Origin: Pseudomonadota bacterium
GTDB taxonomy: Bacteria; SAR324; NAC60-12
Direction of reading: 5' to 3'
Assembly: GCA_004213175.1 (NCBI GenBank)
Contig: SHAT01000002.1
Location: 9,767-73,766 of the forward strand
DNA length: 64,000 bases
Shown here piece after piece: positions 8,674 to 63,500 of the stretch. The position numbers and the translations under genes are program-made. The notes under the pieces are model-generated. The model was not told where the DNA came from and did no database searches. It worked only from the letters and a program-made list of their open reading frames with translations. The stretch's first letter is position 1, and each line of letters opens with the position of its first letter.

Positions 8674-9945
8674 TTAATTAACAGTCCTTGTTAGTGCTTC
8701 TTTGAATACAGAATTACCTTCGTCCATTTTCAAGGCGTTTTCGTAGTGTTTTCTTGCTTGTGAAATCTCACCCTTTGCTTCAAAAGCCAAACCAAGGTTG
8801 TGTTCATCTTCAGCTGTCCTCTCGTCCAGAGCTTGCAGAAAAGCAACTGCTTCATGGTATGCGTTTCCCCTAATTAAATTAACCGCAACGCTGTTCCCAT
8901 CTTGCACAAGTAATTCTGCCGTTTCTTGATAAGGGCTAATTTGTTTAGTAAATTGTCGTGCGACTTCTCGGCCAAGTCTAATTTTCAGATCTAATGGTGT
9001 TTGTGGAACCTGCACATCATTTCTCAGGTTAAATCCCCTAGCAAAATATTCAGTTGGTTTTGTAAAGGATAATCCTGCACGGTCAATTTTTGAAAGAAGT
9101 GACCCAGAAGACTCTTCATCAGAAAGATAATATTTTTTAATTGCGTTTTTTATTTTTATCGGTAAATGCGATGTAGCTACTGAACCTCCCCACTTCTGGG
9201 CAAAGTAAGTCCTAAAACTTTGTGGAGGAATTATTTCACTGCCGTCATTTTTCCGAACCAGAGAAAATTCAACTTCCAGGGCCGCTATATGTTCCACATA
9301 TGGTGTTGCTATCACAAACCCAATTCCTGAGGATTCCGCCCCCATTGAAACAACACTTGTGAGAAAAGATTGTTCGAGGGTGGCTCCTTTGTTTTTAACA
9401 TTTGTAAAATATGATAGGTCCTCCTGTGATTCAATAATAATTTCTGCGTATTTAACTTTTCCATTAAGAACTGCAACTTTGGACTCATCCGGAAGTACGC
9501 CACTATATCCGGTTTCCTTTCCAGTAGTATTTATCAACTGATATGGTGAGTGAAGTGAAAGTTCATGTACCAAAGCGGCTCTAAGCAAATCAGCTGTTAG
9601 GTCCCCGTGTTCATTTTTTGATTTTAACTTAGAAATGGATGGTTTTAATAATTTTTCGGTTCCTTTAAAAATCAAGCTCAATTCGGATGTAGTCTCATTA
9701 GGAAACTTGATCTGTCCTGATAATGTTTGAAAATTACCGACCTCAATGTAGTTTATATTTTCAACTAGCTGAACTGGTGGACGCTCTATTTGAAAACTAA
9801 CTTTTGGTGCACAGGCAGTGATTAAAAATGAACAAAGGCACAAAAGAAAAAATACGCTAAGTTTTACTTCAGAAACATCTTTATGCTTTTGGGAGGGAAA
9901 GATGAAAAAACTATTTGATAGTATGAGTTTCATTAAATCAACCAT
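8674..9945 (-). CDS. Lipoprotein with C-terminal ISPY+TPR module (paralog 3 of 3)
   Basis: Signal peptide with lipobox LITAC. The C-terminus (QISPYQETAELLVQDG...HNLGLAFEAKG...ALKMD) is homologous to the two upstream genes. The start codon is uncertain; an internal Met near LSVFFLL is more likely. Confidence 0.6.
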   Translation of the reverse strand: MVDLMKLILSNSFFIFPSQKHKDVSEVKLSVFFLLCLCSFLITACAPKVSFQIERPPVQLVENINYIEVGNFQTLSGQIKFPNETTSELSLIFKGTEKLLKPSISKLKSKNEHGDLTADLLRAALVHELSLHSPYQLINTTGKETGYSGVLPDESKVAVLNGKVKYAEIIIESQEDLSYFTNVKNKGATLEQSFLTSVVSMGAESSGIGFVIATPYVEHIAALEVEFSLVRKNDGSEIIPPQSFRTYFAQKWGGSVATSHLPIKIKNAIKKYYLSDEESSGSLLSKIDRAGLSFTKPTEYFARGFNLRNDVQVPQTPLDLKIRLGREVARQFTKQISPYQETAELLVQDGNSVAVNLIRGNAYHEAVAFLQALDERTAEDEHNLGLAFEAKGEISQARKHYENALKMDEGNSVFKEALTRTVN

Positions 9946-9973: not shown

Positions 9974-11125
9974 CTATCGCGAACCAATTTGTCTTTGTAA
10001 TTGTGGATGTTCACGTCGAAGTCTTTCAATGCGTCCAAGTCCTTTTGCAAAAAGCAGGTTCTCCGGATCAGACTGCCAGGCCTCTCTGTAGGTAGTCTGG
10101 GCAAGTCCATAGTCTCCTATTGCTTCAAAGCAAAGTCCTAGGTTATATAGATCATTTGGATCAGGATTTTCGGCAGTAACCTGCTGCAATTTATCTATTG
10201 CTAAATCGTAAGCACCCGCCTCAATCAAAATTTTCGCATTGGTTAAGCTGCCTTCAGCAATAGGGTAGCTAACAACTTTTTCTGTGACAGCAACTCGACG
10301 TACAAATCCGCTTGCAATTGAAAGCGCCATATCCGCAATCATTTGGTCAAATGAAGGAAGAACATCTTCGGAGCTTTCAATACTGTTAGCCTTTGATTTT
10401 TTCGTTGATGATAATACTGAGGTGAAATTTTTTGAAATCTGCCGAAAACTTTCTTCGCTCCTTCCGCCAATTCGCTGAGAGTAAGTTCTAGTCTCAAAAG
10501 TAGTTGCGACCACTTCTGTAGGCAACAAACGAGTCATTTTCATTTCAAGTCCTAGTGTACCACTTGTTGATTTATAGGGCCACCAAACCACTTGATCAAC
10601 AGTCAAATTCAGTCCGATACTATTTCTGGATCGAGGTGGGCGGAAATACTCCAGACTTTCTTTGCTTAAGTCAACTCCATCTGTGCGTTCAATTTCAAGC
10701 CAGAGTTTTCCATTGATAACTGCGTCAACATTTTTAGTTTTGTAACCACGTACTGAAACCAATCGCTGAAGTGCAGCGTCATTTTCCAGCTTTTCAAATT
10801 CATCGCTAAAAATAACTTTAAAGTACGGAGTAGCAGTTAACAGATTTATTACTCTTGCTCTTACTGAGCGACTAATGGATTTTTTTTGATCCTCAGTATG
10901 TAAGACAGGATGGGTTTGCCAAAGACCGTTTCGTTCCGTTTTATATTTTAAAATAATACTCCCTATCTCAAAATTTCCTACCGCTACAGTTTTAATTTTA
11001 CTAGTATTTATTTCTGCGGGTGAAAGTACATTAAGTGTTGCTTTCGCACAACCAGATACTAATAGAACCGATATAAGAAACATAAACAATAAAAAACTAT
11101 AGGCGTGATAATTTAAAAATTTCAT
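9974..11125 (-). CDS. Lipoprotein with C-terminal TPR module (paralog 2 of 3)
   Basis: Lipobox LVSGC. C-terminal LYNLGLCFEAIGDYGLAQTTYREAWQSDPEN is a TPR-like motif shared with the neighbouring paralogs. Confidence 0.6.
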   Translation of the reverse strand: MKFLNYHAYSFLLFMFLISVLLVSGCAKATLNVLSPAEINTSKIKTVAVGNFEIGSIILKYKTERNGLWQTHPVLHTEDQKKSISRSVRARVINLLTATPYFKVIFSDEFEKLENDAALQRLVSVRGYKTKNVDAVINGKLWLEIERTDGVDLSKESLEYFRPPRSRNSIGLNLTVDQVVWWPYKSTSGTLGLEMKMTRLLPTEVVATTFETRTYSQRIGGRSEESFRQISKNFTSVLSSTKKSKANSIESSEDVLPSFDQMIADMALSIASGFVRRVAVTEKVVSYPIAEGSLTNAKILIEAGAYDLAIDKLQQVTAENPDPNDLYNLGLCFEAIGDYGLAQTTYREAWQSDPENLLFAKGLGRIERLRREHPQLQRQIGSR

Positions 11126-11137
11126 TGTTTCACTTTC

Positions 11138-12436
11138 TTATTTTTGAGTTTGTGCGGCCAATGTTTTAGTTTCAGAAAGATAACGACGGGTTCGTCCAAT
11201 TCCCTGTGCATAAAGTTTTGTGCCCGGACTTTTCTCAAGTGCAGTAATGTAAAATCTGCGGGCATCTTCGTAATCTTCGGGACTTAAGGCTCCTGATTCA
11301 TAAGCTAAACCTAAATTATACCAATCCTGAGATTCTCTTTTTTCAGCTGGAATTGCCTCGATAATCTGCTGGGTTTTTTGGAATTTTCCATCTTTGAGTA
11401 GATTTACTGCTTCTTCTCTACCTCCGTCTGCAACCTCTACTTCAACCATTTGCTTGTATGGAGAAATTGTGCGGATGAATGATTCCAAAGTCCTCTTCAC
11501 CAATAGCTTTATCACCTGTCGTTTTTCTTTTGGTAACAGGTCATAGATATCTGGGCTTGCCAATCCTTTTGGCCCATAAAAAATTTGTTTTGGATTGCTG
11601 CGTGATGCTAAAGCAATCTGGCGGTTAGGTATTGGGAAAATAGGAATCCTAGTGATACTGACCAGACTTCCTAAAGTTAGAGATATGAGATGGCTTTCTT
11701 TGATGTTGCGGTAGGAATCTTTTTCGGTAATACTGCGACCGAAACTGGCTGAATCAGCACGTATTGCAACTGTTTCCCTAATTAGGCCAATGATGTTAAA
11801 ACTGAAATTTGCCTGAGCAAAAAGTGAAATGTTTTTGTAATCATAAATCCGCACAACTTGATTTTTAGGCGGTATGCCTTCATTTAAACCAGCCAGAGAT
11901 AATGCTGATGAAACGGCAAATTCCGCTGCGTTTCCAGCAAAATTTCCTCTCCGGCAAACATATCCACGCCATTTATCCAAAGTAATGGCTTCATTTGTAA
12001 TTGCTGCTGCACCTGCTGAGGACAGCCTCCCACTTATACCACCAGTACAAGTGGCAAGGTCAGTAAACTGTCCTTGGTCTACTTCCCCGCCGCTTATAAC
12101 CTCTCCTTGAATTATCGCGACCGTTTCCTTTTCTGGATTAAATTGGCTACCATCTAAAGTATTTACTACGCTGACTTTGAAACGTCCGAAACGATTGAGT
12201 GTATCCGCTAGTTGTTGGATAACTTGATTTTTTATGCCAAGTTTATCATTCGTTTCATCCACCAGATCTCCACGTATAAACACTTTTTTTACTTCAAGAG
12301 GGACCGTTATTCTGGAAGGTCTTTGTACTTCAAACTGTGAAAAATTTTGTCCGGTACAGGCAGATATAAATACTGAGGCGTACAGGCAAAATAATGCTAC
12401 AAAATATTGTGCGTGATTTAAATATATTTTTTTCAT
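11138..12436 (-). CDS. Lipoprotein with C-terminal ISPY+TPR module (paralog 1 of 3)
   Basis: Lipobox FISAC. The C-terminus has TISPYKQMVEVEVADGG...WYNLGLAYE...YITALEKSPG. A Gly/Ala-rich middle region is also present. Confidence 0.6.
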   Translation of the reverse strand: MKKIYLNHAQYFVALFCLYASVFISACTGQNFSQFEVQRPSRITVPLEVKKVFIRGDLVDETNDKLGIKNQVIQQLADTLNRFGRFKVSVVNTLDGSQFNPEKETVAIIQGEVISGGEVDQGQFTDLATCTGGISGRLSSAGAAAITNEAITLDKWRGYVCRRGNFAGNAAEFAVSSALSLAGLNEGIPPKNQVVRIYDYKNISLFAQANFSFNIIGLIRETVAIRADSASFGRSITEKDSYRNIKESHLISLTLGSLVSITRIPIFPIPNRQIALASRSNPKQIFYGPKGLASPDIYDLLPKEKRQVIKLLVKRTLESFIRTISPYKQMVEVEVADGGREEAVNLLKDGKFQKTQQIIEAIPAEKRESQDWYNLGLAYESGALSPEDYEDARRFYITALEKSPGTKLYAQGIGRTRRYLSETKTLAAQTQK

Positions 12437-18547: not shown

Positions 18548-19051
18548 ATGAGAATTGCTGTATACCCTACTAGTGCAAATCCTCCAACGTATGGTCACGC
18601 AGACATCCTAGTACGAACAAGTAAACTATTTGATCATGTTTATTGGTCTGCAGCCATGAATTCTGAGAAGGAATATATATTCACTGAAGAGGGACGAGTA
18701 AAGATGATGAATGAATATGTGAAACATTATGATTTAAAAAATGTCACTGTAGAAGCTTTTAGAGGTTCAACTATTCGTTACGTACAGCGACGTAAAGCTC
18801 AAATAATTGTAAAAGGTTTACGCAGTCTTGAAGATTTTCAGGGCGAATTTCAACAGGCAGTTGGTAACAAGGGTATTGATCAGGATATAGAAACTTTTTG
18901 CTTATTTGGTAAGCCGGATCTTTTTGCCATAAGTTCTACTCTTGTTCGTGAGTTAGCATTTATGGGAGAGTCAATCGAAGCCTATGTACTTCCTTCAGTG
19001 GCAGATATTGTGGCAAAAGTTCTTCAAAATAATCCTAATAAAACAGCATAA
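18548..19051 (+). CDS. coaD: Phosphopantetheine adenylyltransferase
   Basis: 167 aa with a nucleotidyltransferase T/HxGH-type motif (YPTSANPPTYGH) and PPAT-like overall similarity. Confidence 0.8.
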   Translation: MRIAVYPTSANPPTYGHADILVRTSKLFDHVYWSAAMNSEKEYIFTEEGRVKMMNEYVKHYDLKNVTVEAFRGSTIRYVQRRKAQIIVKGLRSLEDFQGEFQQAVGNKGIDQDIETFCLFGKPDLFAISSTLVRELAFMGESIEAYVLPSVADIVAKVLQNNPNKTA

Positions 19052-19714
19052 ATGAGCATAATCAAACTACGTATAGACAATCTGGTATTTGGTGGATTAG
19101 GTTTTGTTTTCTTGCTGTCCATAATGACAGCCGATTTCAGGGATCCTACAGTTTTTAACCAGTTATATCCTTCGGAAGGAATTCAAAACTGGATCGGTTT
19201 GATCGGCGCGATTATAGGAGGTTCAATGTTAGAAATCTTTGGCCCGTCAGCCTTATTACTACCATGGCTATTTGTGCGTATATTTTTGCACCAACCACAT
19301 AGTGTTTCTGTTTTGGCAGGAATTTATTATTCTTTTGTTCTCGTTTTTTTAATTTCAATATTCCATGAAATTGCCATACAGTTCACTCTCATTGAACCCG
19401 GCAATTCAGTTTTTTTGTGGCAAAATGGCTATTTAGGCAAATTAGCTTTAGAATGGATCAAACACTCGATGGAACTTGTTTTTAGTTTACCTGCTCTTGT
19501 GGTTATGTTTTTTATCTCTGTATTACGCATGAAACGACTACTTTCTCCACTGCCTTTATTTTGGGGACTGTTGTCTGGAATTCAAAATTTAATCACACAT
19601 TTTCTAAACAAAATCATCTCTCCTCCAATGCCTGAATCTCAACCTAAAGAGGATCAGGTTAACTTAAAAGGACATTCATTTTTTGAAGATAATTCCTCAG
19701 CATATAAAATCTAA
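19052..19714 (+). CDS. Hypothetical polytopic membrane protein
   Basis: 220 aa with about five hydrophobic helices. It starts immediately after the coaD stop. Confidence 0.45.
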   Translation: MSIIKLRIDNLVFGGLGFVFLLSIMTADFRDPTVFNQLYPSEGIQNWIGLIGAIIGGSMLEIFGPSALLLPWLFVRIFLHQPHSVSVLAGIYYSFVLVFLISIFHEIAIQFTLIEPGNSVFLWQNGYLGKLALEWIKHSMELVFSLPALVVMFFISVLRMKRLLSPLPLFWGLLSGIQNLITHFLNKIISPPMPESQPKEDQVNLKGHSFFEDNSSAYKI

Positions 19715-19862
19715 TTGCAGAAGAAGTCTTTCCGTCCTTTTCTGATAATCTTTACAATCTTGATTTTTCCATAGATTCGAGTCATTATTATTTAACAATT
19801 CTGGATCCTTCCAAAATATTATTTTTTCAAACTTTAAAAAATTTTTTGTTAACAGAGATGAA

Positions 19863-20081
19863 ATGCAGATCAAGATACTTTATTGCGTAGTTTGAAACTA
19901 CGAACCACGCGCGGTCAGTTTGGCTGCGGAATTAAAAGATTCACTCGATGCTCAAGTAGAACTGCTTTCAGGCGAACGGGGTGATTTTGAAGTGGTTATA
20001 GATGGAGAATTAGTGTTTTCTAAAAAAAGTCTTTCAAGATTTCCTGAGGACGGTGAAATAACTAATTTAATCAGACCGTGA
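19863..20081 (+). CDS. SelW/Rdx-family selenoprotein (CVVU motif; UGA at 19893-19895 recoded as Sec)
   Basis: Translation reading through the TGA gives MQIKILYCVVUNYEPRAVSLAAELKDSLDAQVELLSGERGDFEVVIDGELVFSKKSLSRFPEDGEITNLIRP. The N-terminal CxxU and the C-terminal GDFEV..DGELVFSKK..RFPE are hallmarks of the SelW/Rdx fold. The ORF track misses the gene because of the internal TGA. Confidence 0.8.
19910..19928 (+). promoter_or_regulatory. Putative bacterial SECIS-like hairpin downstream of the SelW UGA
   Basis: C-GCGGUC-AGUUU-GGCUGC-G forms a 7-bp stem (two G.U pairs) with a G/U-containing apical loop. It begins 14 nt after the UGA. Confidence 0.4.
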
Positions 20082-20266
20082 CTATTCCTATACTAACCTT
20101 TTTAACCAGTAGCCTAATCAATCCAAAAAAGAGAGCCAAAATTCACCTAAATTCTGGCCATCAAAATTAGTATAACTGAAATTATTGTGAATTATAAAAC
20201 TTGAATTAAAACTTTCAATAGGATCCCTTAGAAACACTCTTGCATTTTACAAATGCAAGAGAACCC

Positions 20267-20485
20267 TTAGAAATCTGCTTTTAACGCAGCACGTATTTCG
20301 CGCTTAAGATCTTTATTTCGCTGTTTTGCAGCTGCTTCGCGCTTTAGCCGTTTTGCTAAAGATGGTTTACAGTGATATTTGCGTTTCTTTATTTCTTTAA
20401 AAAGTCCTTCCCTGATCAAGGTCCGCTTTAATTGCATCATTGACCGACCGACGTTCCCGTCACGAACTTCTACTTTGATTGGCAT
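20267..20485 (-). CDS. rpsU: 30S ribosomal protein S21
   Basis: 72-aa basic protein (MPIKVEVRDGN...RLKREAAAKQRNKDLKREIRAALKADF), a typical S21. Confidence 0.9.
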   Translation of the reverse strand: MPIKVEVRDGNVGRSMMQLKRTLIREGLFKEIKKRKYHCKPSLAKRLKREAAAKQRNKDLKREIRAALKADF

Positions 20486-29802: not shown

Positions 29803-30600
29803 TCAAAGCGGATAATAGAAATTAAGATAGATCGTGTGTAATTGACTTTGTTTCAAAAAAGAAGTTGAAGCAGAAGTATTAAAAAATGGCAGCTGTTGCC
29901 CCAGTGAAAAACGATAATATATTAATAAATTTGAAGTGACGAAATAGGACACTCCGGTCTCGATTCCAAGAGCAATTTCATCTTGATAAGCATCATTACT
30001 AATGCTTCCGGCAAAACGGGTTTTAGTAAACTGAAGCCCAGCGCCATAGTGCAAATAAAAGTCACTTTTGATTTTTGGGTATTGTATGTACCATAAATTA
30101 TTTTGGATTACTTCAAGTTCCCTACCGGATTCTTCTTGATAAGTAAAAGATTCCGAGTGTTCAACAATCGAAACTTGCCTTTCATATTCTACTACCTGCT
30201 CATTCCAATAATATCCCAAATTGAATCCAATTCCATTTGCAGTACCATCTGAATCCGATATAATAATTGTTTCAGCAACTTGAAGCTTCACACTGCGAAA
30301 TCCAACACCAAAATAGAAGCCTATCCCTTGAGCGGATGTTCCAGAGACAAAAAAATCTGGTTCCTGGGTTGCGGTCCGTGCCTCTAAACTGCGCTCCTCC
30401 ATTTCACTTTGTTCGAGAGCAAGCTGTGTCTGCGCATCTAACTCTCCTACAAAAATAATAAAACAGCAAACATTTATCAAGAACAGAACTGATTTGGAAA
30501 TCGCCTGGTTCATAAAATTCTTTAATGCAGATGAGTATCTGTTGTTTTTCATATCATTATTCCATATCTGGTAATATTTGTTCCGGAATAGAGATACCAC
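29803..30600 (-). CDS. Putative outer-membrane beta-barrel protein
   Basis: Signal-like hydrophobic segment, alternating amphipathic strands and an aromatic-rich C-terminus (LNFYYPL). The true start is probably an internal Met (MKNNRY... or later), because the annotated N-terminus overlaps lptD. Confidence 0.4.
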   Translation of the reverse strand: MVSLFRNKYYQIWNNDMKNNRYSSALKNFMNQAISKSVLFLINVCCFIIFVGELDAQTQLALEQSEMEERSLEARTATQEPDFFVSGTSAQGIGFYFGVGFRSVKLQVAETIIISDSDGTANGIGFNLGYYWNEQVVEYERQVSIVEHSESFTYQEESGRELEVIQNNLWYIQYPKIKSDFYLHYGAGLQFTKTRFAGSISNDAYQDEIALGIETGVSYFVTSNLLIYYRFSLGQQLPFFNTSASTSFLKQSQLHTIYLNFYYPL

Positions 30601-33211
30601 CTAAGTTAATGTAGGCGTAAAGGGTACGGTCAATATATTCTTGTTCAAGTCCGCTGTTTGATTCTGTTATGCCTACATCTTCTGTGAGAGCAAGACGGAT
30701 ATCCCAGCATTCAGGTCGGTAATCCAGTGTGAAAGCACTTGAACTTAGACGTCGTCGAAAGGTATAACTGTCTGCATCTAAATTGACAGTCCCGGAAAAC
30801 CCAAAAGCCAGTTCGTCACTTGCTTCAAAGCTGTTGCTGAAACCAAATGTGTTAGCTGCAGCAACATCATTACCAAAAGGTGTTTGATAAGCTTCTTCAT
30901 TGTTACGAAAATTTACAGACGCTTTGTTGTGTGCACTCAACCCTACACTTACTTCTAATGAATATTCTACAACCCGCCTCTTCTGATGGTGGTAGCGATT
31001 AAAAAGATTTATTGAAAATGTGCTACCGGGTCTGAAATTTAAGATAGTTCGCAGGGGTAATAAGGGTTGATTTGAATCAGTCTCATTACCTTTAACTGAA
31101 GGACCTACAGGCTGAAAATAGGGATCTTTTTTGAAAAAGTCATAATGCTGGACAAAATTTAAATTGGCGAGATTCCGACTTTTTCCTTCACGCGTTTGAA
31201 CACCAGCTTGACTGTTCAACATAGGTATTACACCTTTCTCCGCATATCCTAGAATGGAGTCTATTTGCTGAGCACTTAATTCCCCCCCAAACAACCTGTC
31301 TAACTTCTCAATAAATAATTTTTCAGAACCTAATTCCTGGCCTAGAATCTGTTCTAATTTTCGAATTAAGACTGGATCCAGTTGATTTCTTCTCATTCTG
31401 TCCAATGAAAGCGATGTTAATTTAATTCTTCGTTCAAAGAAACGACGTTTGACGAGAAGTACATTTTCTATGCGTAATGTTGCAAGTCTACGTGTAGAAA
31501 TTGTTCCTCCAAATGGAACTCCGGAATCAGATATTTGCAAGACATCTTCGATATATTCGTATTGAAGGCGTGGTTTTATCAAGTGCTTGAAACGACTGTA
31601 AATTCCCGAATCTGTTTTAAAATTCCGGGACAAAGTTGTGTTGATTTCAGCTTTACCGTCCAAAATATTGAAGCCATAAGCATCTTCACTTCCGGGCACA
31701 TCCGAATCACGAACTTTGTAGCTGGATATTTTTTCCCCTACTTCAAGGCTAACGTTATAATGTTGAAAAAGAGGAAACTGAAAATTCAATCTGGGAGTGA
31801 CATTTACTCCTTCACCATTGTAACCCTTTACTCTGAAATATCGTACAGCAGATCCACTCAGCGAGCTGGTCAAAGTTGATTTTTCAGATCGCCATAAAGT
31901 ATCACTAAATTGAAATGAAAAAGCCGGTAGGTATTGAATTTGTGTGAGATCAATTTTTCGATTCAAAATAGCCAATTCACTAAAGATCCGTGTTTGAGTT
32001 GCAGAAAATGTGACACTTCCTTTTGAAAACTGCCTGTTGATATTTACCGAAAATTGCTGTGCGGTATTAGGGTCTGGACTTTCAATCAGTTCATATTCCT
32101 TTTGAAACTGACTGTCACTGTAAACCAGCGCAGAAGTAATCAGTCTACTTTGTCCATCTAATTGTTGATTGTGATTAAATTCAAATTTGAAACGCTGCGG
32201 TTTTAATTCTGAAGATTCTATCTCCTGAGGGCTTAGACTTCCTGATTCATTTAAAGGTGAACGAGGATCCCGTTCAAAAAATTGCTGAAATTTTATTTCA
32301 CCACGCATTCCCTCTTTCCAGGCATATTGATAATCCAGACGAAATCCTGGACCGCGAAGCTCCACCCAATCATATGTAAATGTCAAATCCTGTTCCTGAT
32401 CAATATTCCAAAAATACGGAATCCCAATTCGGTAACCCAGATCAAATTTTTTCAGACTACTACGGACTAAGAGATATTCCGGAGGAAGGAAGCCTGACTG
32501 ACGACGTTTAACAGTCGGCCAAGCAAGATAGGGGAAATAAAAAACTGGAACTCCACCTACTCTTAAAGTAGAACTGCTCGATGATGAGAAATTTTGTGCA
32601 TAATATTTTACCTCACTGCCAGTGACCTTCCATGCCGGAGATTTCGGATTACAAGTAGTAAATGTACAAGTTTTTGCAACATATTCGCCTTTATCTAACC
32701 TATGGACTTCCTTCGCGGTCATGTATGCTTTGCTTGAGGCATCATAAAAAATGGCTCCTCTAAAAACTCCTGTTCCGTCTTTAATGTTGATTTCTAACTC
32801 ATCCATCACCGCGATAACTTCACCTTCTGTCACTCTGACATAACCTTTTGCAGTTAATTTGTTTTTTCCCGGGTGATATAATATTTCCGTACTTTCAACT
32901 GATATTTCCTCCCATTCAACTTTTGCGTTGCGGTAAAGATATGTCCCTGCATCAGGATTGTGTAAGTAGGATTGTGTCTGAATTGAAAGTTCCGGAACAT
33001 CCAATTCTACTTGCGCAAATCCTTGAATAGGTATGGAAGCAATGAACCCCAGTATCAAGATAATAACACTTATGAAATAGTTCAAAATATCAAATAAATA
33101 AACTACTTCACATTTGGAACCTAAATGTTCCTGATTTGTTTTTTTGTTAGTCAGTGAATGCAAGGGAATCATAATTGGCGGGAAGAAACAAAACTTAAAA
33201 CTGGCCAGCAA
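30557..33211 (-). CDS. lptD: LPS-assembly protein LptD (OstA family)
   Basis: 884 aa with an N-terminal OstA-like beta-jellyroll region and a large C-terminal beta-barrel. The start is likely at an internal Met before the signal peptide (FISVIILILGFIASIPIQGFAQ). Confidence 0.75.
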   Translation of the reverse strand: MLASFKFCFFPPIMIPLHSLTNKKTNQEHLGSKCEVVYLFDILNYFISVIILILGFIASIPIQGFAQVELDVPELSIQTQSYLHNPDAGTYLYRNAKVEWEEISVESTEILYHPGKNKLTAKGYVRVTEGEVIAVMDELEINIKDGTGVFRGAIFYDASSKAYMTAKEVHRLDKGEYVAKTCTFTTCNPKSPAWKVTGSEVKYYAQNFSSSSSSTLRVGGVPVFYFPYLAWPTVKRRQSGFLPPEYLLVRSSLKKFDLGYRIGIPYFWNIDQEQDLTFTYDWVELRGPGFRLDYQYAWKEGMRGEIKFQQFFERDPRSPLNESGSLSPQEIESSELKPQRFKFEFNHNQQLDGQSRLITSALVYSDSQFQKEYELIESPDPNTAQQFSVNINRQFSKGSVTFSATQTRIFSELAILNRKIDLTQIQYLPAFSFQFSDTLWRSEKSTLTSSLSGSAVRYFRVKGYNGEGVNVTPRLNFQFPLFQHYNVSLEVGEKISSYKVRDSDVPGSEDAYGFNILDGKAEINTTLSRNFKTDSGIYSRFKHLIKPRLQYEYIEDVLQISDSGVPFGGTISTRRLATLRIENVLLVKRRFFERRIKLTSLSLDRMRRNQLDPVLIRKLEQILGQELGSEKLFIEKLDRLFGGELSAQQIDSILGYAEKGVIPMLNSQAGVQTREGKSRNLANLNFVQHYDFFKKDPYFQPVGPSVKGNETDSNQPLLPLRTILNFRPGSTFSINLFNRYHHQKRRVVEYSLEVSVGLSAHNKASVNFRNNEEAYQTPFGNDVAAANTFGFSNSFEASDELAFGFSGTVNLDADSYTFRRRLSSSAFTLDYRPECWDIRLALTEDVGITESNSGLEQEYIDRTLYAYINLGGISIPEQILPDME

Positions 33212-34151: not shown

Positions 34152-34946
34152 TTATTCAAACTTTTGACGTCTCCAGCGGTACGGGCTGTCAACTATTACT
34201 CCCGGCAAAGTCGCTGTTTCAAGTACTTCAAGGCAATCACGGAAAATTTGTTTTTGCTGGGTCCGGTTAAATGCTTCTCCAAGTGCATGACCAAAAGGAT
34301 ATTTCAAGTGATATGTGCGTGGAGGTTTTACTGACTCAGTTATTTTGCGAACAATTGAAATTCCAACAGTAGAAACTCCTTGACGTTCTATTTCACGTTG
34401 GAGCAGACCGACCGTCTGATTGCAGATACCTCAGGCCGGAACTAGTAGAGCAATGTCAATCTGCAATTGCTTAATTTCTTTTGCCACTTCGACAGAACTT
34501 TGCTGAATTAACTTAGTCAGGTGAGGTTCTTTGATATGACCCATAAAGCTGTAGTGATAGGGACCGGAAGCTCCTATAACACCTTCTGTCTGAAGTTCAC
34601 GTAAGACCTCAAAAGGTAGAATTAAATTTGGATCACAGTCCGCATCGCGGTGGTCATAATATTTGTGAGAAATGGTTAAATCTTCCGCAGAAACGTCATG
34701 AGGGATCCTGCGGAATGAACTATCTCCATGAGGATCGTTTAATTCAAAACTTTCTTCCGTTTTCAATAGAATACCTCCGGTTGTAACAAGAGCTATTTTA
34801 CATGCTGAGAGAGGTTTCTTGAGTTTCGTCCATGGGATACTATCAAAATGCATAGCTTCGTATCTTTGTGACCAAATATTTTTAACTATTGGAATCCGAA
34901 ATAACATAACACATAATTTATCCATTAGAGTTCCTTTTCCCATCAA
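34152..34946 (-). CDS. PrdB/GrdB-family (D-proline/glycine reductase selenoprotein B-like) selenoprotein; UGA at 34431-34433 recoded as Sec
   Basis: The 171-aa track ORF ends ...ALLVPA at a TGA. The same frame continues for 92 more codons (U-GICNQTVGLLQREIERQGVSTVGISIV...QKFE) to a TAA at 34152-34154. HYSFMG and AU..C match my recollection of the PrdB Sec region (HFSFMG ... TAUCGTC). Confidence 0.75.
34404..34418 (-). promoter_or_regulatory. Putative SECIS-like hairpin 12 nt downstream of the PrdB-like UGA
   Basis: The mRNA CAGAC-GGUCG-GUCUG has a 5-bp perfect stem and an apical loop containing GGUC. The spacing fits bacterial SECIS elements. Confidence 0.4.
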
Positions 34947-49404: not shown

Positions 49405-50901
49405 ATGGCAGAAATAACTGATGATGTTGAAATCAAACTGACCCCAGAAGATAGTCCAAATGAAATATTAAAAGATCTAGGAGATAAAGAGTTGTTAGAA
49501 GAAGACCTCAACGGAGATGACCCGTTATTGGGACTGGATGATTCAGATATGGATGACATGTTCCCGGATTCTGATGATGTGGATGATTCTCCAGATGAGG
49601 TTGAAATAGACTTAGGTATGGATGAAATTGGTGATCTTGTAGAAGACTTAAAATTGGATGTGGCTGAGGATGATGAAGAGGTACATGTTAATGGAGAAGG
49701 AGATATGGTTTTCGATGAGGAAGAAATTAATAATGACAGTAATGACTCAGTAGAAAGTTTACTTGATGCATTTGAAGATGATGACGATGACGGAGAGCAT
49801 AGAGTTGTAGATGATTCTCTTGAAAAGGAAACTCCTACTGATCCAGAAAAAGACTCTGAAAATGATATTGAGCAAAGTCCAGAGTCACAGGAAGAACATG
49901 TTCCTTTAGTAACGGAATCCCCAGTTGAAGAAGAAGGAGGAGATAGCGATGATTCAGGAGAATCTAATCCCTCAGATTTAATTGATATCTTAGATGACTC
50001 TGATATTTCGGATGATAGTGACCAAGAAGAAGATGAAGATATGGAACTAGGCATGGATACTCTTGACGAAACCAAAGATGAAGAATTATCAGATCTTGAG
50101 CTCGATACTACGGAGATTGAGGAATCCGTCGACTTGGATGTTCCTGCTATAGACACTTCAGATGAAACTAAGGAAGTGGATATCTCGGATGAATCAAAAG
50201 ATGATGAAATAACGGATCTCGGCATTGATGATGTCGAGACTGTTGAGATAGAAAATGATGAGGATAAGTCTCCAGTTGGAATTGATGAAGTAGAAGTCAC
50301 GGATGAAATAACAGATAATGAAATGCCGGATCTTGGAATTGACGATGCCGAAACTGTTGAGATAGAAAATGATGAGGATTATTCTGCTGATGAATCAGCT
50401 GAAGTTGAACTTGAAGAGGATATTTTTGAGTCTGAGGCAGAAGATATTGCAGTAACTGAGATAGCAACCGAAACTCAAGGATTACTTGAGGAGTTAAGTG
50501 GGGAGAATGAAGAAATTGAAACTGAAGTACAAGAAACGCCTTCAGATGAATTAACTAAAGAGAATGAAGAAATTATAAATGTAGCTCAAGAAACACCTTC
50601 TATTGTTATAGTGGAGAGTGAAATGCCAATTGAATCAGAGGCAACAGAGACAATAGCAGCACCTTTAGACTCAAACATGCTGTTAAACTTCAACCATGAA
50701 GTAGTGGTCGAAATAGCGAGGACAAGCCTTACCGGCGAAGAAATCACACAGATCACATATGGCAGCATCATTGAACTTGATAAAGTTGCAGGTGAACCAG
50801 TAAATTTAGTCCTCAACGGTAAAACAATTGCTCTTGGGGAAGTTGTACAAATAAACAATGAAAAACTGGGCATACGAATTGTGGGCGTTATCCAGGACTA
50901 A
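49405..50901 (+). CDS. FliN/SpoA-domain protein with ~430-aa hyper-acidic repetitive N-terminal region
   Basis: The C-terminal ~70 aa (VVVEIARTSLTGEEITQITYGSIIELDKVAGEPVNLVLNGKTIALGEVVQINNEKLGIRIVGVI) match the FliN/SctQ SpoA fold. The N-terminus is about 35% D/E with internal repeats. Confidence 0.7.
   Translation: MAEITDDVEIKLTPEDSPNEILKDLGDKELLEEDLNGDDPLLGLDDSDMDDMFPDSDDVDDSPDEVEIDLGMDEIGDLVEDLKLDVAEDDEEVHVNGEGDMVFDEEEINNDSNDSVESLLDAFEDDDDDGEHRVVDDSLEKETPTDPEKDSENDIEQSPESQEEHVPLVTESPVEEEGGDSDDSGESNPSDLIDILDDSDISDDSDQEEDEDMELGMDTLDETKDEELSDLELDTTEIEESVDLDVPAIDTSDETKEVDISDESKDDEITDLGIDDVETVEIENDEDKSPVGIDEVEVTDEITDNEMPDLGIDDAETVEIENDEDYSADESAEVELEEDIFESEAEDIAVTEIATETQGLLEELSGENEEIETEVQETPSDELTKENEEIINVAQETPSIVIVESEMPIESEATETIAAPLDSNMLLNFNHEVVVEIARTSLTGEEITQITYGSIIELDKVAGEPVNLVLNGKTIALGEVVQINNEKLGIRIVGVIQD
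50200..50385 (+). repeat. Internal tandem repeat (~100-114 nt period) in the acidic region of the FliN-like gene
   Basis: The nucleotide repeats are ...ggatctcggcattgatgatgtcgagactgttgagatagaaaatgatgaggata... and ...ggatcttggaattgacgatgccgaaactgttgagatagaaaatgatgaggatta.... They encode DLGIDDVETVEIENDEDKS and DLGIDDAETVEIENDEDYS. Confidence 0.7.
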
Positions 50902-50909
50902 TTGAAATT

Positions 50910-51854
50910 ATGCTTCACCAAACATCAGACATCCCCATAAAACCCTTTGAGTTAGCTGAAACTCAATTCAATACAGGACGTTTCCACATAATGGATATTG
51001 TCTTTCGTCGGTGGGCAACTCTCTTGCAAGAGACGCTTTACGCGGAAATGGGAATGATGTTAGATATATCCGCTGAAAATGTTGAGAAGATGCGTTTTGG
51101 GAAATTATTAGATTCGGTTGAGGAACAGCCGATCTATATTTTTGAAACTTTAAACAATGGCCGTGGTTTTTTACTTGTAGAAAAACCTTTTTTTGATTTA
51201 TCACTTAATGGGAAAGTAGATAATACCTCAGAAGAGTTGTCACTAGTAAAAATGATGAAAGAAAATAGACAAACTCTACTGAAATTAGTATCAACATTGA
51301 TTGATTGCTTTGAAAAAAGCTGGAAAAATATTGCAGAGGTTGAACTTAAACTGAATCGTGTTACCATCTATCCCCGCAGGGCAAATGTCATGTTGCCTTA
51401 CGAGAATTGTTTCTCAGGACGTATTCAGCTGATTCATGAAGATCTTCAAACAAGTATCCAGTTATGCATGCCTTATGCTGCTCTTGTGTCTGTACTTAGA
51501 CCGCTTGAAAACAAAAAGATTATTGAGCCTGAATCGATAGGGTATTATTTCCCTCATGTGAAAGATAATTTTAAGAATTTACTGGAAAGTTCTGAATATT
51601 CTGTTGTTGCTGAATTAGGTAAGGCGGATCTGAGAGAAGCAAAAGGGAAGCTAGAAGAAGGGCAGGTCCTCCCCCTGCTGAATAAAGATGGCCTCGCTAC
51701 AATCCGGATAAACGGAACCCCTGCTTTGCAAGGTTCAACAGGAGAATCTTCAGGGCATTATTCAGTTCAAGTGATACGAGGTGCTGAGGATAAAAAACCT
51801 TCGGCAATTCAGCAAAAAAAGAAATTCAAACAACTTGCCTGGCCAACTCAATAG
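50910..51854 (+). CDS. FliM-like flagellar motor switch family protein lacking the N-terminal CheY-P binding peptide
   Basis: 314 aa. The middle domain has a FliM-like LCMPYAALVSVL (ciPy motif). The C-terminus (GQVLPLLNKDG...RINGTPALQGSTGESSGHYSVQVI) is a SpoA-like fold. There is no LSQDEIDALL-type N-terminus. It lies 9 nt after the FliN-like gene. Confidence 0.6.
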   Translation: MLHQTSDIPIKPFELAETQFNTGRFHIMDIVFRRWATLLQETLYAEMGMMLDISAENVEKMRFGKLLDSVEEQPIYIFETLNNGRGFLLVEKPFFDLSLNGKVDNTSEELSLVKMMKENRQTLLKLVSTLIDCFEKSWKNIAEVELKLNRVTIYPRRANVMLPYENCFSGRIQLIHEDLQTSIQLCMPYAALVSVLRPLENKKIIEPESIGYYFPHVKDNFKNLLESSEYSVVAELGKADLREAKGKLEEGQVLPLLNKDGLATIRINGTPALQGSTGESSGHYSVQVIRGAEDKKPSAIQQKKKFKQLAWPTQ

Positions 51855-55162: not shown

Positions 55163-56104
55163 ATGTTTTACAAAAATATTCTACTAATTCAGTTAGGATT
55201 AGCATTTGTAATTATGTTAGAGCTTGCTCCAGGTGTTTTTGCACAGGAAGAAGGTACAGTAATTCAAGCAGTAGGAAGAGATGAAGTCTGGCGGATTGGA
55301 TTTTGGGAATTAGTACATCAAACATTTGTTAATGATGACAGTCATCCGTTTTATCAAATGACGGGTACTGAAAGGTTCAGAGCAGGAAGTGGTTTTTTTG
55401 GAACTACTTTTTTAGATCCAGGAAGTACCAATTTGATTCCAAATGTTAATTATAAAAATGAAGATGGTCATAGTGGTCAAGACGGTATTTTAACAAATTT
55501 ATTCAGTAATATCCCTCTGCTAGGAGCTATCCCTACTTTTTCCCTAGAGTATATCCAACCAACTAACTATGGCATCGGTATCGGCTTAGGAATTGCTTAC
55601 ACCAATATTTGGCTAGATGACACACAAGTCAGGTCAGCCACTACGGGAGCAGATCCAGAATATGATACCCCTATCTTACGGTTGGCATCTCATTTCTATA
55701 TGCTTGCCGCATCAATCCACCCTTTAGGAGTACCTAAGACTGACGATTTGGATATTTTTTTTGGTATAGGTCTATCGAGAGTCGAAAGTACTTTAAAATC
55801 TGGTATCCGAGTGAATCCAACAATCCCTGAATATGCTTCTACCACTCAGACTCAACTCAACAGTTCTTCCGGCGCCTTATATTTTCGAAGAATAGGAATT
55901 GCTTCAGGAGGTAAAAATTTTGGTATTATGCTGGAGTTTCTATTACTTGGAAACGAGGAATTTATTGAAAATCCGTTTGCCAAAAGTACAATCATAGACT
56001 CTGCTATCTATGACTCAACATATAATGACCGAGGGGGTGCATTACCTTCAAAAGTTGGAATGCCTGGAGGGATCACACGTTTTTCTTGGACTTATTCATT
56101 TTAG
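55163..56104 (+). CDS. Putative outer-membrane beta-barrel protein
   Basis: Signal peptide (LLIQLGLAFVIMLELAPGVFAQ), alternating-strand composition and a C-terminal aromatic residue (SWTYSF). Confidence 0.45.
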   Translation: MFYKNILLIQLGLAFVIMLELAPGVFAQEEGTVIQAVGRDEVWRIGFWELVHQTFVNDDSHPFYQMTGTERFRAGSGFFGTTFLDPGSTNLIPNVNYKNEDGHSGQDGILTNLFSNIPLLGAIPTFSLEYIQPTNYGIGIGLGIAYTNIWLDDTQVRSATTGADPEYDTPILRLASHFYMLAASIHPLGVPKTDDLDIFFGIGLSRVESTLKSGIRVNPTIPEYASTTQTQLNSSSGALYFRRIGIASGGKNFGIMLEFLLLGNEEFIENPFAKSTIIDSAIYDSTYNDRGGALPSKVGMPGGITRFSWTYSF

Positions 56105-57417
56105 GTAGTGCTTCCATTTTCCAGGATCTGAATGACCTCTCCCACTAAATAAAAAGATCCGGCAACTACAACAGGTTTATCAACAGCGAGTATTGCATTT
56201 TTCAAAGATTCTTCCACAGATGAGCTATGTAAAATTTTTGGCGAATGTTGGAATTTAGCACATTTCGTAATAAAGATTTCTAAAGACTCTGCAGTTGCGC
56301 TTCTTGGCGAAGACATTGTGGTAAAAATGAGATTCTCAGCTTTTTCACACAAATCTTTCAAAGGAATTCGTAATGTTGGTTTTAGTTTGTCTGCAGCCAT
56401 TCCCAAAATAAGTGTACAGGGAAAAAGTTTGTTCACAGATATAAAATCTACTAGAGCCGTCAATGCATCAGAATTATGCCCTCCGTCAAATAAAATAGTG
56501 TTAATTAATTTTCCATGTTTACGCCAGAATACGTTTCTCCGTAACTCAAGACGTCCTCTTATCTTTACTTGTTTAGTTATTTCTAACCATTTTTGTTTAT
56601 CAGAAATTTTGCCGTTAAAAAGCACATCCATTGCGCATAAACTTGTCTTTATACAAGCCATCCTAGGTTTCGAAAAACTTTCAGATGACAATTGATTATT
56701 CGGATAATATCGATCAAAAATCTCATCCACAAAATAATAAGGCACCTTCAATTTGCCAAACTGCTGGGCCAACCACGGTATCAATTCAGGAGGCTGATCC
56801 GCAACTATTATAGGTACACCAGGAATTGTAATACCAATTTTTTCTGCTGCGATTTCTCGCAAACTATTTCCGAGAGCTTCCTGATGATCAAGGCCAATCC
56901 TTGTCAAAACGCATAATTTTTTTGCTGTCACATTAGTTGAATCTGCCAGCCCTCCTAAACCAGTTTCCAAAACAACCCACTCCATTTTTTCAGTCATGAA
57001 AGCATGAAAGGCAATTGCAGTTAATATATCAAAATATGAAAGGTAGGGACTCCCCCTGTAGCCTCGTGCAAATTTAAGTACCAGAGATGCACTCTGAGTA
57101 AAGGTACTTTTAGAAATAAACTGATTGTTAATAGTTATTCGTTCCCTAATATCTGTCAGATGCGGTGAAGTATAACAACCTGTGTCAAATCCCTGCCCAC
57201 ACAATAAACTGCTGATGATTGTAGCGGTGAAACCTTTCCCGTTTGTTCCGGCAATGTGTATTATTTTGAATTTTTTATGAGGACTTCCTAAATCTTTTAA
57301 CAAAAGGCGGATTCCATCCAGTTTGCTGAGATCTCGTGGCTTTGCTGTGATTTCATAATTACTCCAACTTTCCATCTCTGATAGTACTTGCAGAAACTCT
57401 TTGTCAGAGAGAGACAT
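56101..57417 (-). CDS. folC: Folylpolyglutamate synthase / dihydrofolate synthase
   Basis: 438 aa. The P-loop is HIAGTNGKGFT and the fold is the Mur-ligase type. Confidence 0.85.
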   Translation of the reverse strand: MSLSDKEFLQVLSEMESWSNYEITAKPRDLSKLDGIRLLLKDLGSPHKKFKIIHIAGTNGKGFTATIISSLLCGQGFDTGCYTSPHLTDIRERITINNQFISKSTFTQSASLVLKFARGYRGSPYLSYFDILTAIAFHAFMTEKMEWVVLETGLGGLADSTNVTAKKLCVLTRIGLDHQEALGNSLREIAAEKIGITIPGVPIIVADQPPELIPWLAQQFGKLKVPYYFVDEIFDRYYPNNQLSSESFSKPRMACIKTSLCAMDVLFNGKISDKQKWLEITKQVKIRGRLELRRNVFWRKHGKLINTILFDGGHNSDALTALVDFISVNKLFPCTLILGMAADKLKPTLRIPLKDLCEKAENLIFTTMSSPRSATAESLEIFITKCAKFQHSPKILHSSSVEESLKNAILAVDKPVVVAGSFYLVGEVIQILENGSTT

Positions 57418-62459: not shown

Positions 62460-63500
62460 TTGCTCGTTATGAGAATTACCTCCTCGACAATTATTTTAAT
62501 TTTCAACTTTTTGCTCTGCTGCGCAACAACATACATGGTGGGTTCGTTGCTCAGTACATGGATACATTATCAAGTTTTGTCTATCCCCCTTTCACCACTC
62601 ATAACCTTCCAGACTGAAAAAGATGAGCTGCTGGTCGATTCGGGGAAAGCCCAAAAAGAATTTGCAGTAATTTTGGAGAGAAATATTTTCAATGCTCAAA
62701 AAACTCAAATAGAATTACCAACTTCGCTTCCGGAAGAAGAATTTGTTGCCCAAATTAACACGGATGGTGAAGCCGTCGAACACACGCGTTTAAATATTGC
62801 GCTTGCAGGTACAATGATTTACGGAGAGAGGGATTCATTTGCATTCATCAGTAAAAAAGATAGTTTAAACAAATATGTAATTTATGGAATAGGAGAATGT
62901 TTTCATGCAAAAACAATTCTACGTGACGAGAAATGCGTTAAAGAAAGTGTAAAAATTCTTAAAATCAGGGATCGCTGGGTTTTGATTCTATATCAGGAAA
63001 AAAAAGAGTCTTTGTGGATGGTCAGCACTGTTAATTCAGGAAAAGCAACGGAATCTGTTACTTTACCAAATAAATCCCAGAACCAAATTATTTCATCACA
63101 GAAAACAACAGCTCTTGCTGTTCCAAAGAAGGGAAATGTTGTAGATGAAAAATCTTTGCTTCCAGCTGCTCCAGTCAAAGAAGGAAATACTTTCCATTTT
63201 CAGCGAGTGTGGGTTGATGAACAACTGGCAAATTTTGAGCAACTGCTTAATGATGCCAGAGTTGTTCCCACAACTAAAGGTGAAAAACCTTATTTTATGT
63301 TTCAGTTCATTAAAGAAGGAAGTATTTACGAAAAATTAGGGCTGAAAAAAAATGATATCATTTTAGAAATAAACGGATTTATTGTTGATTCAGTTGGTAA
63401 AGCACTCAAGTTGTTGGAAGTACTTCAATCGGAAAGGGAGATTTTACTCAAGGTAGAGAGGCAAGACAAAGCTGTAGAGTTCTACTATTATATTGATTAA
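62460..63500 (+). CDS. PDZ-domain membrane protein (GspC-like architecture)
   Basis: 346 aa with an N-terminal TM helix and a C-terminal PDZ-like domain (LGLKKNDIILEINGFIVDSVGKALKLL). No other T2SS genes are nearby. Confidence 0.45.
   Translation: MLVMRITSSTIILIFNFLLCCATTYMVGSLLSTWIHYQVLSIPLSPLITFQTEKDELLVDSGKAQKEFAVILERNIFNAQKTQIELPTSLPEEEFVAQINTDGEAVEHTRLNIALAGTMIYGERDSFAFISKKDSLNKYVIYGIGECFHAKTILRDEKCVKESVKILKIRDRWVLILYQEKKESLWMVSTVNSGKATESVTLPNKSQNQIISSQKTTALAVPKKGNVVDEKSLLPAAPVKEGNTFHFQRVWVDEQLANFEQLLNDARVVPTTKGEKPYFMFQFIKEGSIYEKLGLKKNDIILEINGFIVDSVGKALKLLEVLQSEREILLKVERQDKAVEFYYYID

Follow-up and report, generated by a model that had tools for sequence, protein, structure and literature searches.

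The closest described relatives of the gene reported here are the bacterial SelW-like (Rdx family) selenoproteins. The locus falls into the same class of about 70–80 residues, with an N-terminal CxxU motif, the GxFE, FSK and RFP motifs and the same predicted fold, and it has the same arrangement of a UGA for selenocysteine (Sec) and an in-frame SECIS hairpin. Among the prokaryotic selenoprotein families in the Global Ocean Sampling data, Zhang and Gladyshev found SelW-like (CxxU) proteins to be the most abundant and the most widespread in the sea, 427 of them in the Sec form and 56 in the Cys form; PrdB (UxxC) was also among the top marine families (PMC2398784). Programs dedicated to selenoprotein prediction are available, as is a database with more than 57,000 bacterial selenoproteins. 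The bacterial SelW-related structures that have been solved are Cys (CxxC) forms, about 27–32% identical to the product described here, whereas the present gene represents the Sec form. Mammalian SelW (2npb) and MIEN1/C17orf37 (2ljk) have in common with it the thioredoxin-like Rdx fold and the position of the CxxU/CxxC motif, but are distant from the SelW-like product (E = 8e-3 for SelW and 5.6e-07 for MIEN1). Eukaryotic selenoproteins use a SECIS in the 3'-UTR together with SBP2/eEFSec, and not a hairpin within the reading frame that is recognized by SelB. The SECIS of the Escherichia coli fdhF type is, like the element described below, a hairpin that lies within the coding sequence a short, fixed distance behind the UGA and has an apical loop with a conserved G-U, although sequence and stem details differ. 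In the bacterial SECIS consensus model of Zhang and Gladyshev from 2005, the distance from UGA to loop reportedly ranges from 16 to 37 nt.

We analyzed a stretch of 64 kb of DNA, here called the window, which has a G+C content of 38%. Its nearest named genomes are metagenome-assembled genomes (MAGs) of SAR324/Lambdaproteobacteria (L001–L003), with 75–83% identity in DNA. A sequence-only reading of the window had proposed that an apparently empty gap next to rpsU hides a selenoprotein gene. The gap measures 552 nt and lies between a membrane-protein gene (19052–19714) and the convergent rpsU (20267–20485, minus strand). In a mechanical list of open reading frames, the gap contains a single entry in the frame of interest, the 53-aa remnant starting at TTG, plus short ORFs in other frames or on the other strand. 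Read through one internal TGA, the plus strand yields a frame of 72 codons, in which 10 sense codons (MQIKILYCVV) precede the TGA and 61 codons follow it before the stop, again a TGA. The read-through peptide is MQIKILYCVVUNYEPRAVSLAAELKDSLDAQVELLSGERGDFEVVIDGELVFSKKSLSRFPEDGEITNLIRP. Frame, peptide, the positions of both TGA codons and the gap itself were thus found exactly as proposed. The coordinates are collected in Table 1.

Table 1. Features of the SelW-like locus, in window coordinates
Feature	Position	Strand	Remarks
Candidate sigma-70-type promoter	19792–19820	+	TTAACA, 17-nt spacer, AATATT; 43 nt upstream of the start codon
Shine-Dalgarno-like GAGA	19855–19858	+	4 nt before the ATG; read from the sequence
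Proposed complete SelW-like (Rdx family) selenoprotein gene	19863–20081	+	ATG start; 72 codons including Sec11, then TGA stop
Cys8 codon (TGC), putative resolving cysteine of CxxU	19884–19886	+	Cys in 79/79 distinct sequences compared
In-frame TGA, read as selenocysteine U11	19893–19895	+	TGA in 80/80 relatives
Putative SECIS hairpin	19910–19928	+	Arms 19910–19917 and 19921–19928; apical loop G19918, U19919, U19920
TTG-started 53-aa remnant ORF	19920–20081	+	All that a standard gene caller can see
True stop, again TGA	20079–20081	+	Similarity among the relatives' proteins ends here

The promoter-like site was found by a consensus scan and is weak, with 9 of 12 positions fitting the consensus. 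Upstream of the start codon, GAGA or GGAGA is present at the same place in L001, L002 and L032; in L003 this place is taken by AGAAA only. On the upstream side the locus is flanked by coaD and the gene for the FtsK-4TM-like membrane protein, and on the downstream side by rpsU, pspA and rpoN, which are on the other strand; nothing in this neighborhood hints at the function of the SelW-like gene. The coaD gene (pantetheine-phosphate adenylyltransferase, 18548–19051, plus strand) directly abuts the plus-strand membrane-protein gene. Since the coaD stop is adjacent to the start of its neighbor, translational coupling of these two genes is suggested. The membrane protein itself, with 220 aa, consists of an FtsK-type 4TM domain alone, without the translocase domain.

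For scoring with family models, U was read as C in the 72-residue product. Pfam Rdx (PF10262) matched residues 2–71 with 67.2 bits (cut-off 22.6, E = 1.5e-18), and TIGR02174 (CXXU_selWTH) scored 61.5 bits against a cut-off of 34.2. With the NCBIfam equivalog NF041051, SelT/SelW/SelH family (seleno)protein, the product reached 96 bits (E = 1.1e-27), just above that model's cut-off of 88. A sequence search matched the solved Rdx-family structures 2ljk, 3dex, 2fa8, 2p0g, 2oka and 2obk, and mouse SelW 2npb. An AlphaFold2 model was built on P0001, a database protein that is 99% identical and has W at the Sec position. The model (pLDDT 81, pTM 0.65) shows a strand at residues 2–8, a helix at 14–28, three further strands and a C-terminal helix, which is a thioredoxin-like beta-alpha-beta-beta-beta-alpha order. 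With this succession, the C8-V-V-U11 motif is placed between strand 1 and helix 1. Foldseek aligned the model with the bacterial SelW-related crystal structures 2oka, 2obk, 2fa8, 3dex, 2p0g and 2ojl at TM scores of 0.85–0.89 and an rmsd of about 1 Å; mouse SelW (2npb) and MIEN1 (2ljk) matched less well, with TM scores of 0.65–0.73. The scores of all three family models, each above its cut-off, and the predicted fold make the read-through product a full-length member of the Rdx/SelW family, the assignment first made from its motifs.

We then compared the codon at the U position among relatives. A scan of representative genomes confirmed 525 relatives, of which the best 80 were used. Judged by record title, these span roughly nine phylum-level groups: SAR324/Lambdaproteobacteria, Desulfobulbaceae and other Desulfobacterota, Acidobacteriota, Gemmatimonadota, Planctomycetota, Alphaproteobacteria, Krumholzibacteriota, Methylomirabilota, Fibrobacteres and one Bacillota MAG. 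The codon is TGA in each of the best 80, with conserved peptide sequence before and after it (M-x-h-x-I-x-Y-C-x-x-U-N-Y-x-P-R-A). The C and the U of CxxU are invariant in 79 distinct sequences, and the 61 codons downstream carry the invariant motifs of the family, GxFE, FSK and RFP. Close homologues with a gap at the U position, or a downstream part showing no conservation, had been named beforehand as observations that would speak against the gene; the relatives have a TGA and no gap at this position, and the downstream motifs are present.

The minimum free energy structure of the 58 nt starting at the UGA is a hairpin of eight pairs with a GUU loop that begins 14 nt after the UGA, at the place where a hairpin with a G/U-containing loop had been predicted. 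Its stability was unremarkable compared to shuffled sequences (z = -1.04), and because of this the SECIS argument rests on the comparison with relatives. The 63 nt from the UGA could be aligned without gaps in 81 sequences, and folding placed the hairpin in the same register in nearly all relatives. Among these 81 sequences, 86.9% of the cells of this structure were paired, compared with 74.6% in column shuffles, and none of 500 shuffles reached 86.9%. Sliding the partner columns by 1–3 positions dropped the value to 26–47%. Double-sided changes in the stem numbered 82, against 34.8 expected. The first base of the loop, G26, never varies, and at least 90% of the sequences keep the U at position 27. 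The covariation and the invariant loop G thus bear out the predicted element.

A further observation was made on the codons that form the top of the hairpin. Codons 18, 19 and 20 have third-position entropies of 0.10, 0.52 and 0.10 bits, whereas other four-fold codons nearby show 1.3–2.0. The first positions of codons 18 and 19 have entropies of 1.85 and 1.39, and the amino acids vary freely. Third positions that are more conserved than first positions argue for a constraint on the RNA and not on the protein. In its position, the content of its loop and its conservation, the hairpin is as expected for a bacterial SECIS. The spacing from UGA to loop of about 22 nt lies within the range reported for the bacterial consensus model. 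Rfam reported no SECIS family, neither for the whole window at gathering thresholds nor for positions 19800–20150 at E values up to 10; this lack of recognition has no bearing on whether the hairpin works as a SECIS. The top of the hairpin (C, R-G-U-Y-U, G) is near-identical over the roughly nine phylum-level groups. This suggests that gene and SECIS move or persist as one unit, and that such a unit would be recognized by very different SelB proteins.

The treatment of the gene in public records was also examined. Over 20 kb, the window is 99.6–99.8% identical to four public contigs (L081–L084), including NCBI GCA_045564555.1 JBJLHA010000014.1. The gene calls of these four contigs contain nothing between rpsU (10800–11018) and the FtsK_4TM gene (11571–12233). 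Thus, standard annotation does miss the gene. The 52 relatives returned by a protein search fall into two kinds, full-length proteins with a CVVW motif and fragments of 53 aa. The CVVW proteins (P0001–P0028) come from short ENA contigs on which genes were called under a code with TGA as Trp, and these calls also overrun the true TGA stop into unconserved residues, for example RPWLFLY. Such mistranslated selenoproteins stand in protein collections as ordinary entries. The 53-aa fragments (P0027, P0034, P0038 and P0040) were deposited with SAR324, Lambdaproteobacteria and Deltaproteobacteria MAGs and begin just after the TGA. Truncated relatives carry the JGI label 'selT/selW/selH-like putative selenoprotein'. 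The expectation that standard callers would miss or truncate the gene was confirmed by the four contigs without a call and by the fragments in MAGs.

A second gene in the window also points to selenocysteine. It is a PrdB-like gene at 34152–34946 on the minus strand, with an in-frame TGA at 34431–34433 within the motif VPA-U-GIC (UxxC). The sequence-only reading had invoked this gene as corroboration, and it proved to be real: TIGR01918 ('selenoprotein B') scored 71.2 against a cut-off of 65.45, with an alignment that crosses the TGA. The best model match was TIGR04483 (PrdB) with 152 bits, below the cut-off of 300 for that equivalog, so we describe the gene as PrdB-like rather than as a bona fide D-proline reductase subunit. 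Starting 12 nt after its TGA is a hairpin of 5 bp, whose GGUCG loop resembles that of the SelW-like SECIS. The two genes share a TGA at the Sec site of the respective family and, after it, a short hairpin whose loop is rich in G. The PrdB-like gene (TIGR01918, Pfam GRDB PF07355) is, however, of an unrelated family, lies 14 kb away on the opposite strand and is not part of the SelW-like gene. No prdA-like partner was seen adjoining it; it is flanked by genes for a protein with an SNase domain and for one with the N-terminal domain of alanine racemases (Pfam Ala_racemase_N). When the window was roughly scanned for frames interrupted by a TGA in a redox-like context, 60 candidates came up, and the few inspected besides the SelW-like and PrdB-like genes were apparently shadow frames or tiny upstream stubs. 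Judged by their sequences, these two genes make it almost certain that the organism uses selenocysteine.

The machinery for Sec insertion was searched for in the window and in related DNA. ARAGORN found no tRNA-Sec in the 64-kb window or in 60 related loci, and Pfam models identified no SelA, SelB or SelD among about 50 ORFs of the window. Searches by tblastn with SelA, SelB and SelD of E. coli, using query sequences that may contain errors, gave no match in the window or in the related DNA. For the SAR324 group, Peng et al. (2016) listed 'SAR324 cluster bacterium JCVI-SC AAA005' as Sec-utilizing with six selenoproteins (Table S2). Two further single-cell genomes of SAR324 appear in the same paper under 'orphan SelD' (Table 1; PMC5029168), a label for organisms that have SelD but lack selenoproteins and any other Se-trait genes. 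The assemblies of these two are incomplete, and the selenoprotein genes described here suggest that their label may reflect incomplete assemblies or missed genes.

Readings of the internal TGA other than selenocysteine have to be weighed against these data. The codon may be a genuine stop, in which case the locus would be a decayed pseudogene, or the TTG-started ORF alone would be expressed. Standard gene calling gives just this ORF, several MAG annotations deposit exactly the corresponding fragment, and the Sec machinery was not found in the window. A disabling mutation is not what the relatives show, since the TGA is kept in all of the 80 best ones across many phyla. Moreover, the 10 codons 5' of the TGA differ by five synonymous changes and one non-synonymous change from those of L001, with the same count for L002 (these two are the closest genome relatives, with 73–76% protein identity). 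Change that is mostly synonymous argues that these codons are translated in this frame and are under purifying selection at the protein level. Alignments to the family models begin at residue 2 or 3 of the product, and the models require the N-terminal strand together with the CxxU motif, whereas the 53-aa fragment would be without strand 1 and most of helix 1. We regard a genuine stop at position 19893 as extremely unlikely.

Translation might also proceed through the UGA with a residue other than selenocysteine, either because TGA stands for Trp or Gly throughout the genome (codes 4 or 25) or because a near-cognate tRNA inserts Cys or Trp. The CVVW proteins called on short public contigs would fit this explanation, as would the failure to find tRNA-Sec and selB in the window. 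However, TGA is the stop codon of 9 of the 53 well-supported genes in the window and occurs in frame in none of them, and Trp is encoded by TGG 195 times. In the genes of the window, TGA is an ordinary stop and not a general sense codon. The extension of the CVVW calls beyond the true stop into unconserved sequence is likewise at odds with a reassigned code. In addition, the family residue that aligns here is the redox Cys/Sec and not Trp, the UGA is followed by a conserved hairpin under constraint at the RNA level, and the PrdB-like gene has its TGA at a known Sec site. Insertion of another amino acid is hence, in our judgment, highly unlikely. Finally, the frame is short and has no called gene in the four public records, as might be the case for an open frame arising by chance in an intergenic spacer. 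To this explanation we attach virtually no probability. It is excluded by the family-model scores, with the E values from Pfam and NCBIfam reported above, together with the relatives that have a TGA at the same codon. Representative genomes contain 525 confirmed relatives, and the gene is found at the same place in relatives from the SAR324 clade that are only 75–83% identical in DNA.

The reading of the UGA as selenocysteine is supported by the TGA in 80 of 80 relatives, the purifying selection upstream of it and the conserved hairpin, and we hold it very likely that the locus is a functional SelW-like selenoprotein gene decoded by the SelB/SECIS mechanism. What the analysis shows directly is the gene, its membership in the family, the conservation of both the TGA and the hairpin, and the predicted fold. 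SelB-dependent insertion of Sec in this organism and the redox chemistry of the product we infer by analogy. In the mechanism that we propose, a low-GC marine bacterium, whose closest named relatives are SAR324 / Candidatus Lambdaproteobacteria, would express a monocistronic gene for a SelW-like selenoprotein of 72 residues. Translation would start at the ATG at 19863. When the UGA enters the ribosomal A site, the hairpin with its GUU loop would recruit SelB-GTP and Sec-tRNA(Sec), and selenocysteine would be inserted at this codon. The ribosome would then melt the hairpin, continue and terminate at the second UGA. The product is predicted to take up the small thioredoxin-like Rdx fold, in which Cys8 and Sec11 may cycle between a reduced selenol/thiol and a selenenylsulfide, as in other members of the family. 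By the same analogy, it could act as a thiol-disulfide oxidoreductase or as an antioxidant.

The gene order around the locus is common to the window and L001–L003, and a tRNA-Gln about 5 kb downstream is common to the window and L003. The PspA protein encoded next door has entries in 179 blocks of the collection, a number suggestive of a widespread organism. The largest cluster from a search for neighbors across phyla, with 40 loci, proved to be an artefact, in which antisense shadow ORFs of the SelW-like gene linked unrelated proteins; only lineage-specific neighbors remained, for example in Desulfobulbaceae. In loci of the Desulfobulbaceae type, the SelW-like gene lies 1.4–4.7 kb downstream of a tRNA-Arg(TCG) (L007, L011, L012, L014, L015, L017, L025, L027, L034 and L044). 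In L005, L011, L014, L015, L017, L044 and L063 it is followed by a convergent gene for a protein of about 166–168 aa, a putative metal-dependent regulator. This neighborhood with tRNA-Arg and the regulator-like gene is absent from the window and from the loci of other phyla.

Elsewhere in the window, seven ORFs had no Pfam match at E <= 1e-5: 8674–9945, 11138–12436, 29803–30600, 30557–33211 and 56101–57417 on the minus strand, and 55163–56104 and 62460–63500 on the plus strand. The unmatched ORFs span 265–884 aa, the largest being that of 884 aa. Genes for flagellar switch proteins, one with a FliN C-terminal domain and one FliM-like, are located at 49405–50901 and 50910–51854 on the plus strand. 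The FliN-domain protein is unusually long with 498 aa, and the recognized domain covers only residues 427–496.

A family that is abundant in marine surveys, that has an equivalog model at NCBI and whose truncated relatives carry a JGI label makes this locus a rediscovery of a textbook case. The selenoprotein is of an already known kind, and the finding is one of an annotation gap and not of new biology; no new protein family, recoding mechanism or function is revealed. The SelW-like gene is real and conserved, and to judge from its sequence it is probably expressed in a widespread marine bacterium. The chances appear about even that the selenoproteome of SAR324-type bacteria is systematically invisible in public annotation, its genes being left uncalled, cut to 53 aa or deposited as CVVW proteins. 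If this is true, the 'orphan SelD' status of SAR324 single-cell genomes would be an artefact, caused by genes that were missed and by assemblies that are incomplete, and not a sign of a new selenium trait. The chief value of the finding lies in the correction of the annotation and in documenting the use of selenocysteine in a SAR324-type lineage, and it bears on estimates of selenium use by these bacteria.
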